The position numbers were made by a program, and so were the translations under genes. DNA of 64,000 nucleotides from a virus. The notes below the pieces were generated by a model. That model ran no database searches, was not told the origin of the DNA, and saw only the letters and a program-made list of their open reading frames with translations. Position 1 is the first letter of the stretch, and the number at the start of each line of letters is the position of its first letter. The stretch lies in IMG/VR virus record IMGVR_UViG_3300014208_001418; one strand, given 5' to 3'. This document shows, one piece after another, positions 23,149 to 26,420 of this stretch.

Positions 23149-23457
23149 ATGGTCGGACTTTTACTTTTTATAGGAGGGCTTTACGGCTATTTCAAAAAAG
23201 ATAGCAAAAACCTCTATAAAAATATTTTCAAAAGCGCAACCTTTCTTGGATTAATAATCGCTATTGTAGGAATAATCGTTTCATTTGGAATACTATCAAC
23301 TGAATTCTCAAATGCGTTATCTCAGTACGGACAATACATAAGTACATTCGGAATAATGTTAATACTCTTAATATTGTACGTAATTATTGTGATTGAATTC
23401 ATCGTGGGCGTATTAATCGGGAATCTTCTCAAACAAGAACTCAAAAAACACACATAA
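23149..23457 (+). CDS. Small three-TM membrane protein
   Basis: Hydrophobic; GGLYGYFK start. Confidence 0.7.
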   Translation: MVGLLLFIGGLYGYFKKDSKNLYKNIFKSATFLGLIIAIVGIIVSFGILSTEFSNALSQYGQYISTFGIMLILLILYVIIVIEFIVGVLIGNLLKQELKKHT

Positions 23458-23509
23458 CCTTCAAGTTATTTCTTTACCTTTTTTCTACCTTTCCTCACTC
23501 ATCATAACC

Positions 23510-23536
23510 CTTAAATACTATCAAGTAGTAGTAGCA
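23510..23536 (+). promoter_or_regulatory. TATA + AGTAGTAGTAGCA promoter
   Basis: CTTAAATACT, exact 13-mer 23524-23536. Confidence 0.8.
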
Positions 23537-23570
23537 GTACTCAACATTTCCCAATATCGGAGTACAAAAT

Positions 23571-24065
23571 ATGTATGAACCAACACCCGAAGACGAAATC
23601 CCATCCGTTTACCCATTACTTTCATGCAATAACGATGAATACAAACATACTACCTGCTTCCTCACAAACAAACCTTGTGATGAAGATGAAGAATGTCGAA
23701 CCTGCGAAATAGCTCGCAAAGAGAAACTCGCCGAAGCTGAAGAGCTTAAAAATCAAGAACGAGATACGCACACGATATTCAACAAAAGTCGTTTAATCGA
23801 CGGAGAACATCTACAATCAAATTCAGAAAATGTCATAGCTCTCGGTTCTCCTGTCACTATGAAACGCCTCCAGGACAAAAGTATATTCTCTTCTACCCCA
23901 AGACCGTATGATCCATTTTACCTGAAACAATATGCTAAAGAACTTCGAAAACTTCGAAAATATAACAACTTCCCAATTCCAGATGAAATCTATTCTGATA
24001 AAGACAAGCCTGCTGTCTTTGTATGGGGATCACTTCATTTCGTAATAGCTCCATACATAGAATAA
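23571..24065 (+). CDS. Hypothetical protein with N-terminal Cys cluster
   Basis: C...C...C...CxxC. Confidence 0.65.
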   Translation: MYEPTPEDEIPSVYPLLSCNNDEYKHTTCFLTNKPCDEDEECRTCEIARKEKLAEAEELKNQERDTHTIFNKSRLIDGEHLQSNSENVIALGSPVTMKRLQDKSIFSSTPRPYDPFYLKQYAKELRKLRKYNNFPIPDEIYSDKDKPAVFVWGSLHFVIAPYIE

Positions 24066-24202
24066 AAATTCAAAACCTTGCTATAATATCTTTACATATA
24101 TAGATTAAAAAACATAAATTTTAAATTAAATCTATATTTTAAATATATTTATAATTTTTCATTAAACTTAAATACTAATCAAACCTATCTTATTATACAG
24201 CT

Positions 24203-24655
24203 ATGAAACAGTCAGAAATACCATATTTAAAAAAGTCAACATTAAGCATGTTGCCGATAGCACAAGCAGAACTTCAAAAACGACTTAATATATCATCTCA
24301 AGATACCTCAGTATTTGTAAAAATTCTCCTGACAGAGAATATAGCAATTCGTGAGAAATCAAAAAAGGGAAGGGGTTTCTTATTAATATTAAATCCATCC
24401 CTAAATATAAACGAAGAACTCAGAAAAATAAACCTCAAAGAACTCGAACCAAACCTCAAACTATACCCGAAAACCACGAAGTTAAAAAAAGTGAAAAAGC
24501 TCAACCCTCCTAAATCCAAAACTCCCGAAGTACCAAAAGAGCCTCTTCGATATGCGCTCCTCAATTCCCTACATGCTTTTTCACCATGCACAGCCTGTAT
24601 CGAAACCTGCGATCCAAAATCATGCGTCACTCTTGACTCATGGGTAAGAGCATAG
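24203..24655 (+). CDS. TFEbeta/RPC34-like protein (wHTH plus C-terminal Fe-S cysteine motif)
   Basis: AQAELQKRLNISSQDTSVFVKIL HTH; FSPCTACIETCDPKSCVTLDSW. Confidence 0.7.
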   Translation: MKQSEIPYLKKSTLSMLPIAQAELQKRLNISSQDTSVFVKILLTENIAIREKSKKGRGFLLILNPSLNINEELRKINLKELEPNLKLYPKTTKLKKVKKLNPPKSKTPEVPKEPLRYALLNSLHAFSPCTACIETCDPKSCVTLDSWVRA

Positions 24656-24660
24656 AAATC

Positions 24661-24696
24661 TTTAAATACTTTCGAGTATTAGTAGCAGTTGTAGCA
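24661..24696 (+). promoter_or_regulatory. TATA + variant AGT-motif promoter with no downstream ORF
   Basis: TTTAAATACT, AGTATTAGTAGCA at 24675-24687. Confidence 0.65.
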
Positions 24697-24905
24697 AAAG
24701 GATAAAAGCGTATTTGCTATGTTGTGACCTAAATTTGTAACAGAAAAAAATGTTGATGTCGTTGCTGACGTTGCTGACAAATCTATAGCCTCAAAAGTCG
24801 AACCGCGACCAGCAACGACAATCACCCACTATCCACAATGGGGACAAGTACGAAAAGTTTGATTCACTTCATCATATTAACAGGTTTTAAATCCCTGTGT
24901 CCCCT
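24697..24905 (+). ncRNA. Candidate structured ncRNA
   Basis: 11-bp stem 24757-24767/24810-24820 and 7-bp stem 24840-24846/24898-24904 with nested hairpins; own promoter. Confidence 0.4.
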
Positions 24906-24940
24906 ATCACCTACTCATTTTCTCATCCTCAAACACAACC

Positions 24941-24967
24941 CTTAAATACTTTGAAGTAGTAGTAGCA
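24941..24967 (+). promoter_or_regulatory. TATA + AGTAGTAGTAGCA promoter
   Basis: CTTAAATACT, exact 13-mer 24955-24967. Confidence 0.8.
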
Positions 24968-24998
24968 ATGTGCAAAAACACAAAGAGATAAGATAAAT

Positions 24999-26420
24999 AT
25001 GATATCACTACCAATTGTAAATCAATTTCTCATATGCGATAATGAGAAATTAGAACAAATTATAGATAAAAGAGACCTTACATCAATAACAATCTATTAT
25101 TCGCTCATAGGAAATGATGATAAAGCAAAAATATCAATAAACCGACCTGAACAAATGATAGATGGCTTTTACAATAGCAATCATATTAACGCAGTAAGAC
25201 AATTTCTATCATATCTCAAAATGGATTTCGCTTGTGATACTATTGCTAATAGTAAAAGCTATCCACTCATAATAAGAACAGGTAGAGACTTAAATTTTAT
25301 CATTCCTAATAGAAAACTTCAAACGCTAGAGACTATTCGCATAAAAGAGGCAACATAAAAAGGTAGCTAAAATGGAATTTCAAAAGAAGATTATTACCAA
25401 TATATTCCTGTAAAGAATGCAACTATAACGGAAGAGAAGTCATAAACAGAGATGACAGCATAGGGGAGAAAGGTCGATATACAACATATTGTACCCATCT
25501 TGCAGGAGAAACAATGACAATCAAACATGGAGAGACAGAAACCTCAGAACATTATATCTTCCCAAAATGGTGTTTACTAAAAGAGGACACACAGTAATAT
25601 GTCAACAAAAATTTATAACGGCTATTACCTAGACAAATGCTCCCTAGATGAGCTACAGTCCTTCACAATGTCTCTACGTTCTAACATATGCGAACTCCAA
25701 AAAAAGCTCTATGCGACTCAATTTCTAGCCGACTTAACTTCAATAATAGATAGCAAAGCTCTCTTTGACGCAAAGCTATATAGAAAAGAGAATCTTCCTA
25801 AAAACTTCTCAAAAATATGCGAAGATCCATACTTTCATGTCTATTACGACATCATGGAAAAATCATCTGAAATCGAAAAAACCAATAAACGTAATCCCGA
25901 TTACGACTTCACTTGCAACATGTCTATAATACCAACTCCCTCAAAAATCCTAGTTATGTTTTTCTCCGAGCAATCCGAATACACTTCTCTTTTCGAATCC
26001 TATCCCAACGTTCATCCCTATCCATATTTCAACAACACTGACAAACCTAAAGACACCTCTGAAGAAGAATGGCAACAGCGGGAAATAGACTGGAACCCCA
26101 TCCATATTCCCTCTATGTCAGGATTCACAGCACAGCTATCATATCCATATCTTCCCTTTATGAACATCTTCGAAATGCTATCCTTATCCTCTCCTCCATC
26201 CTTTAATAAACGTGTAAATCATCACCTGTCGAACATCATATTTCAGCAATATTTCTATCAAAACAAGATAAAACCCGACATGTACCACATCTATACCCAA
26301 CTCGAAACCGCAAAAGAATGGGCATCAAAAAACCTAATCAAACACAACATTCATAGAGATGTTTCCGCAACACTAAAACTAAAGCTAATAGCTTCAGACT
26401 TAGAGAAGCGTAACATTTAA
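24999..26420 (+). CDS. Hypothetical ORFs (24999-25358; 25599-26420)
   Basis: Long open frames with RBS-like sites. Confidence 0.65.

Follow-up and report, generated by a model that had tools for sequence, protein, structure and literature searches.

A predicted element-borne member of the archaeal TFEbeta/eukaryotic RPC34 family and its candidate role in promoter choice

Known members of the family

The published euryarchaeal RPC34/TFEbeta is represented by Mbur_0176 of Methanococcoides burtonii (116 aa), the gene for which lies beside the Sm gene Mbur_0177 (Blombach et al., 2009, PMC2770514); the same layout of RPC34 orthologue and Sm gene is found in Methanosarcina, Methanosaeta, and Archaeoglobus (Blombach et al., 2009, PMC2770514, supplementary table). 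The family shares the C-terminal signature CxxC-x(3-5)-C-x(4-10)-C (PMC2770514). In Saccharolobus solfataricus TFEbeta, the four Cys residues hold a [4Fe-4S] cluster (Blombach et al., 2015, PMC4495717), and in Sulfolobus the Fe-S domain is essential for binding to TFEalpha while the winged helix (WH) is dispensable for dimerisation (PMC4495717). The Cys-less protein of Haloferax volcanii has been identified experimentally as a genuine TFEbeta without a cluster (PMC5861453).

Here we describe a TFEbeta/RPC34-like protein (P0001) encoded within a window of 64 kb, i.e., the whole stretch of DNA that was analysed. The initial annotation had called a mobile element with its own TFEbeta unusual, and this judgement holds for the literature that we searched (which covered some but not every journal), in which no TFEbeta encoded by an element or a virus was reported. 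The papers on Borgs and ECEs that we consulted make no mention of TFE, TFIIE, RPC34, or transcription factors, and what the retrieved papers do describe are repressors and small DNA-binding proteins. In P0001 a protein family that is already known takes on a new genomic role, its relatives include novel multi-WH architectures, and its branch of the TFEbeta family is previously undescribed.

The gene and its product

The window has a low GC content (31-40%), with nearly all coding capacity on a single strand. Pfam matches among 66 window ORFs include a helicase, Salactin, a HerA/FtsK-type ATPase, QueC, radical SAM, integrase, and LAGLIDADG proteins. As a separate observation, one window ORF (1 of 46 aligned) matches Pfam Tad6, a Type I Thoeris inhibitor (E 2.6e-34), and others match thymidylate kinase, phage integrase, and YopX. 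A protein identical to P0001 is encoded on a contig of 148,445 bases. The gene and the domains of its product are as follows:

24203..24655, + strand: whole gene for the TFEbeta/RPC34-like protein P0001 (150 codons plus stop)
24203..24400, + strand: winged-helix domain, residues 1-66 (from the AlphaFold2 model, WH structural matches, and alignment to the cellular TFEbeta WH)
24401..24541, + strand: Lys/Pro-rich linker of low model confidence, residues 67-113 (pLDDT 45-62; of variable length within the family)
24542..24652, + strand: C-terminal four-Cys domain, residues 114-150 (from invariant columns, HMM, Cys signature, and Atlas neighbours)

P0001 (150 aa) has an intact reading frame with an ATG start, and this start codon is supported by the MKxxDIPxLK N-terminus that its homologues share. 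The linker is missing from a 111-aa relative (P0002). The C-terminal domain has the family consensus LL-x5-FSPCxxCxxxCxPxxCxxLxxW, which in P0001 takes the form P128-C129-x2-C132-x3-C136-x-P138-x2-C141-x2-L144-x2-W147, with Ala at the near-invariant Gly position of the family (PCTAC). Across 24 relatives with a single WH, Q21, L119, P128, the four Cys residues, and W147 are invariant, and across the 37 relatives found they are invariant or nearly so; because these motif columns are conserved, we regard both the gene and the motif as real and under selection.

AlphaFold2, run on a 24-sequence alignment, modelled residues 3-63 as three helices followed by two strands (pLDDT 88-97), and the C-terminal module at pLDDT 76-85 with a helix at its end. 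The best structural matches to the WH were BldR (Z 9.5), the TFIIIC tauB WH (Z 9.2), and the human RPC39 WH (2dk5; Z 8.1); these are practically tied, and the model therefore points to a generic fold and not to a family. Searches with the full model (Foldseek and VIA-align) likewise returned generic winged helices only. Both sequence features named in the initial annotation are confirmed: the N-terminal wHTH by the AlphaFold2 fold and the WH structural matches, and the PCxxCxxxCxPxxCxxLxxW motif exactly as it was written, with its columns conserved in relatives.

Folded alone, the C-terminal 43 residues (pLDDT 74; a small and metal-free model) gave no structural match in two libraries. In the ESM Atlas, the clusters nearest in feature space are archaeal proteins of ~120 aa with PF04182 or PF05158 (the latter in 29-36% of members), and when structural neighbours are counted as well, PF05158 is present in 29-41% of the members of the neighbour clusters of P0001. 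For residues 106-150, seven of ten structural neighbours are such archaeal ~120-aa proteins or chordate RPC6, and a chordate RPC6 cluster is also among the structural neighbours of residues 120-150. For residues 119-150, the Atlas also returned a cluster of 165 hypothetical Uroviricota proteins of ~213 aa (TM 0.50 by query, over 30 residues), which is a lead only.

Homology to TFEbeta and RPC34

A HMMER search of 1.84 billion cluster representatives identified 37 representatives related to P0001 at E <= 1e-3; among 5.8 billion clustered proteins, just one relative was close. Across 185,579 genomes (one per prokaryote species), a degenerate DNA scan for F-S-P-C-x2-C-x3-C-x-P-x2-C-x5-W gave 111 matches, nearly all in Methanosarcinales and related Halobacteriota, the genera including Methanoperedens, Methanolobus, Methanococcoides, Methanohalophilus, Methanimicrococcus, and others. 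The matches at L086 and L105, in GC-rich bacterial DNA, were rejected as chance; those at L034 and L111 are archaeal-type genes on contigs binned as bacterial MAGs. Most matches encode a protein of ~113 aa that consists of one WH and FSPCxGCxxxCxPxxCxxLxxW, and in both of the two loci examined this Methanosarcinales gene is directly downstream of an LSM/Sm gene. Because this layout matches the Sm-adjacent arrangement described above, we take the ~113-aa gene to be the published RPC34/TFEbeta orthologue.

P0001 itself fits the published C-terminal signature, with C129-x2-C132-x3-C136-x4-C141 at the short end of both ranges. An HMM built from 91 cellular sequences matched P0001 with 46.5 bits (E 2e-10, Z = 1e6), with separate matches to the WH and to the Cys domain, and the four-Cys domain alone scored 31.1 bits; other members of the element family scored up to 94 bits, and P0001 is the most diverged full-length member against this profile. 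Profile-profile comparison (hhalign) of the element family with 20 diverse cellular sequences gave a probability of 99.8% (E 1.5e-29) over 97 columns that span both domains. The cellular profile matches 133 of 151 Halobacteriota genomes, usually with one full-length match each, which fits a core gene. These matches include acidic Cys-less sequences (…LLMAGDMLSPFIGEEE…W…), which look haloarchaeal, the type to which the Haloferax TFEbeta belongs.

Domain libraries were of little help with this branch of the family. Pfam gave only sub-threshold MarR matches to P0001 and none to PF05158, and NCBIfam gave no match. PF05158 also misses the cellular Methanosarcinales gene, and since an accepted orthologue is thereby overlooked, this model is insensitive to the branch. 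The failure of Pfam and NCBIfam extends even to the host TFEbeta of Methanosarcinales, and because these genes are not recognised they are routinely annotated as MarR or 'B-block TFIIIC'. Assignment of P0001 itself to the MarR family (PF01047) was rejected: the match scored 12.9 bits against a cut-off of 24.6, and the model has no C-terminal dimerisation helices. PDB searches with P0001 and with the element-family, cellular, and C-terminal profiles gave MarR-type WH matches or noise, with RPC34/RPC39 not significant; yeast C34 reached only E 0.46, over the WH alone. Because the PDB and Pfam tests gave no significant match, the link to the crenarchaeal and eukaryotic members rests on the literature and on the Atlas leads. 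The homology to TFEbeta/RPC34 proposed in the initial annotation is upheld by the profile comparison with the published euryarchaeal orthologues, the Cys signature, and the Atlas neighbours, which support P0001 as a genuine, though diverged, representative of the archaeal TFEbeta/eukaryotic RPC34 (RPC39, RPC6) family.

A branch separate from cellular TFEbeta

In a maximum-likelihood tree (102 aligned columns; a quick search on few columns, and unrooted), a single branch with SH-aLRT 99 separates 38 element-type sequences from 58 cellular TFEbetas, the latter coming from Methanoperedens and Methanosarcinaceae or resembling the types of Methanomicrobiales, Archaeoglobus, and haloarchaea. P0001 clusters with P0002 and P0006 (support 97) and has a long terminal branch (0.86). 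Since all element-type sequences are split off by the branch with SH-aLRT 99, P0001 is not a recent copy of a host tfeB; recent capture of a host gene was rejected, as neither Methanoperedens nor Methanosarcinaceae encloses the element clade in the tree. We also rejected P0001 as a chromosomal tfeB orthologue, on the grounds that its neighbours are element genes, that there is no LSM gene, and that the tree places it apart from the cellular clade (SH-aLRT 99). By tree position and gene neighbourhood, P0001 is predicted to be an element-borne paralogue and not a host orthologue.

Of 53 Methanoperedenaceae species genomes, 50 contain a single cellular-type gene, and only two contain an element-type gene in addition; in one MAG the cellular and element types are on different contigs (L070, L095). 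The metagenomic loci with element-type genes have 32-40% GC. The window shares no synteny with the other carrier loci beyond the TFEbeta-like gene, and a related-locus search and motif scan of IMG/VR viral contigs gave no match.

The 92-kb metagenome contig L190 resembles in style the Borg-like extrachromosomal elements of Methanoperedens. Its larger ORFs are all on the same strand, and they include tubulin-like, SPFH, and RRXRR proteins, together with several that have no Pfam match. At L190:9362-10582 (+), this contig encodes a 406-aa element-type TFEbeta with three WH domains, the spacers between which are near-perfect tandem repeats (33 nt x 7.3 and 30 nt x 4.8) that encode Lys/Glu/Asp-rich stretches. 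P0005, P0008, and P0019 carry similar repeats, and in some relatives the WH is present in two or three copies. The short contigs L021 and L095 have chromosomal-looking neighbours (RPA-like, Trm1-like, and an IS630-type transposase), and for this reason 'element-associated' is the best reading and not a proven rule. On the same sequence evidence, the best reading of the distribution is that the P0001 branch is carried mainly on low-GC extrachromosomal DNA linked to Methanoperedens-type Methanosarcinales.

Several further loci came to light in these searches. L034 is a 128-kb contig of 31% GC that carries an element-type archaeal TFEbeta and is filed under a 'Candidatus Dojkabacteria' MAG (CPR); it shares its sampling site series with the Methanoperedens MAG L078, and is probably a mis-binned archaeal extrachromosomal element. 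The chromosomal TFEbetas of Methanimicrococcus/Methanolapillus, methanogens of termite and cockroach guts, are 335-545 aa in length (L007, L017, L024, L043, L047, L077, L093, and L106), with a long, partly repetitive Lys/Ala/Thr/Glu-rich extension N-terminal to the WH; in this they resemble thaumarchaeal TFEbeta, for which an N-terminal extension of low complexity has been reported (PMC2770514). A Methanocellales MAG encodes a 133-aa protein (L028:2251-2652, -) with the C-terminus LMM-x5-FSPCxGCxxxCxPxxCxxLxxW and an unrelated N-terminus without a WH match, and this protein scores 48.9 bits against the cellular HMM, over the C-terminal domain only.

Promoters and the AGT motif

The promoter assigned to the P0001 gene is the following:

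24167..24176, + strand: probable TATA element CTTAAATACT of the P0001 gene (a decamer also present at the head of the AGT-motif promoters at 23524 and 24955)

This element lies 26 nt before the P0001 ATG, and as a predicted promoter it would probably drive the gene and yield a leaderless or near-leaderless mRNA. A second TATA-like box, CTTATTATAC, is present at 24190-24198 of the window, 4 nt before the ATG; it is too close to drive the P0001 start, and its transcript would begin within the ORF. A search of window positions 23400-25600 against Rfam gave no match.

The AGT motif of the initial annotation is real: the 13-mer AGTAGTAGTAGCA, with up to 2 mismatches, occurs 34 times in the window against 1.0 expected. 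A conserved TATA element precedes it, with a spacing of either ~4-5 nt or ~11-15 nt; copies of the short-spaced class end 2-4 nt ahead of the ATG, and so fill the interval from TATA to start. These positions would place AGTAGTAGTAGCA in the region of promoter opening. At the P0001 gene, the TATA decamer is followed by AATCAAACCTATC... and the AGT box is absent. The carrier loci L190 and L034 have no comparable AGT motif upstream of their genes, and AGTAGTAG is not enriched in L021, L095, or L034.

Just 3' of the P0001 gene is an ORF-free stretch (window 24690-24910, +) that starts at a variant AGT promoter (TATA at 24661, motif at 24675). It folds more stably than shuffled sequences (-52.5 kcal/mol, z -2.86), and Rfam contains no match to it.

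Proposed function and rival explanations

The best explanation, which we hold with moderate confidence, is that the element TFEbeta acts with host TFEalpha to alter promoter choice. A TATA promoter of its own, free of the AGT motif, would drive expression of P0001; the four-Cys domain of the protein, probably with a [4Fe-4S] cluster, would bind host TFEalpha and displace host TFEbeta. The resulting hybrid TFE would sit on the RNA polymerase clamp and shift which promoters open efficiently, to the benefit of the element. That the four Cys residues of P0001 hold an Fe-S cluster is probable by analogy with the Sulfolobus and human proteins, in which the Cys residues are more widely spaced; in the proteins shown to have Fe-S the spacing is x5/x10, versus x3/x4 in P0001 (PMC4495717). 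The likely hosts encode canonical TFEalpha, and none of TFEalpha, TFB, or TBP was found among the ORFs of the 64-kb window, which makes pairing with host TFEalpha the likeliest arrangement as judged from gene content. Two elements that flank the Cys residues, LL-x5-FSP and L-x2-W, are common to P0001 and cellular TFEbeta; since conservation of these residues exceeds what metal ligation needs, it fits a retained partner surface.

The WH diverges where the cellular proteins do not. Cellular TFEbeta has the basic helix-3 signature IDSRKCSR, in which K33, C34, and R36 are invariant, whereas at this position P0001 has ISSQDTS and the element family has the consensus r-d-x-S. Because the WH differs precisely where the cellular proteins are invariant, P0001 is unlikely to be a mere spare copy; loss of the helix-3 signature suggests altered contacts with DNA or with the non-template strand. 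The replacement of these conserved basic residues in the element family (SSQDTS in P0001) could also be taken as a sign that the WH is crippled, in which case an intact TFEalpha-binding domain would make P0001 a decoy, or anti-TFE, that titrates TFEalpha or occupies the clamp and damps host transcription. Conservation of the C-terminal domain is at least equal to that of the WH (mean identity to cellular proteins 0.39 vs. 0.33), and archaeal viruses are reported to repress host RNA polymerase directly, as with ATV ORF145/RIP (PMC5123050). However, the WH is clearly constrained in the element family, with Q21, P18, L28, and S36 conserved, and its duplication or triplication in some members would be odd for a dead domain; we consider a decoy rather unlikely.

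Contact with TFEalpha would not be needed if P0001 were a plain MarR-like regulator of TFEbeta descent, with the Cys domain serving only as a metal- or redox-sensing or dimerisation module. The joint conservation of LL-x5-FSP and L-x2-W in P0001 and cellular TFEbeta, beyond metal ligation, argues against this, even though family members match the MarR, MarR_2, TrmB, and HTH_Crp_2 models, the fold of P0001 is a generic WH, and the Methanocellales protein of L028 combines this C-terminal domain with a different N-terminus, so that the domain can work in other contexts; a plain regulator is unlikely, if not negligibly so. We give almost no credence to the idea that the ORF is spurious or decaying and its Cys pattern due to chance: the long branch and the single close relative among 5.8 billion clustered proteins would suit it, but 37 representatives with invariant motif columns, a confident fold, an intact frame, and a homologue-supported start do not, and the conserved relatives and the profile match to the cellular family effectively refute it. 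Altered-specificity activation is ranked first, above both the decoy and TFE-independent regulation.

The initial annotation had put P0001 forward as a candidate effector for the AGT motif, a role that the analysis does not so far support: the motif is absent from the promoter of the P0001 gene and from two further carrier loci. In such a scheme, the element TFEbeta would swap into host TFE to form an element-specific factor that prefers promoters with a TATA-(AGT)n box (AGTAGTAGTAGCA), a proposal that we regard as quite improbable. The motif-less promoter of the P0001 gene would fit P0001 as an early switch. If true, an AGT-selective element TFEbeta would be an archaeal counterpart of phage sigma replacement or appropriation, in which a basal-factor subunit reads the initially melted region. 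For altered promoter choice in general, the presence of the element clade on DNA linked to methane-oxidising Methanoperedens and relatives offers a testable handle on whether a TFEbeta swap changes which promoters are used.

Comparison with known systems

Phage T4 AsiA/MotA provides a case of sigma appropriation by virus-encoded modifiers of host transcription initiation, and ATV ORF145/RIP is a modifier of this kind in archaea. Both are mobile-element proteins that act on the host initiation machinery, as is proposed here for P0001; neither is known to be a homologue of a host basal factor subunit.

The TFEbetas of Saccharolobus solfataricus and Haloferax volcanii resemble P0001 in having a WH and a C-terminal domain. 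Unlike P0001, the former has its Cys residues at C92/C95/C101/C112 (spacing x2, x5, x10) and the latter has none (PMC5861453). Methanosarcinales TFEbeta (Mbur_0176; PMC2770514) is closer: like P0001 it has one WH and a C-terminal CxxC-x3-C-x4-C domain, and its core, LL-x5-FSPCxGCxxxCxPxxCxxLxxW, is near-identical to that of the P0001 family. The Methanosarcinales gene is single-copy and Sm-adjacent, and its product has the invariant IDSRKCSR helix 3; P0001 lacks this helix signature, has element genes as neighbours and a 47-residue Lys/Pro linker, and falls on the opposite side of a branch with 99% support.

Eukaryotic RPC34/RPC39/RPC6 (PF05158) shares with P0001 an arrangement in which the WH part precedes a C-terminal domain with four Cys residues. 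Unlike P0001, RPC34 (~316 aa) is stably integrated as a polymerase subunit, and P0001 is not matched by PF05158. The three WHs of RPC34 are echoed by the relatives of P0001 with two or three WHs; unlike RPC34, these multi-WH element relatives arose by internal duplication with tandem repeats. The two- and three-WH forms are an independent natural experiment that parallels the three WHs of eukaryotic RPC34.
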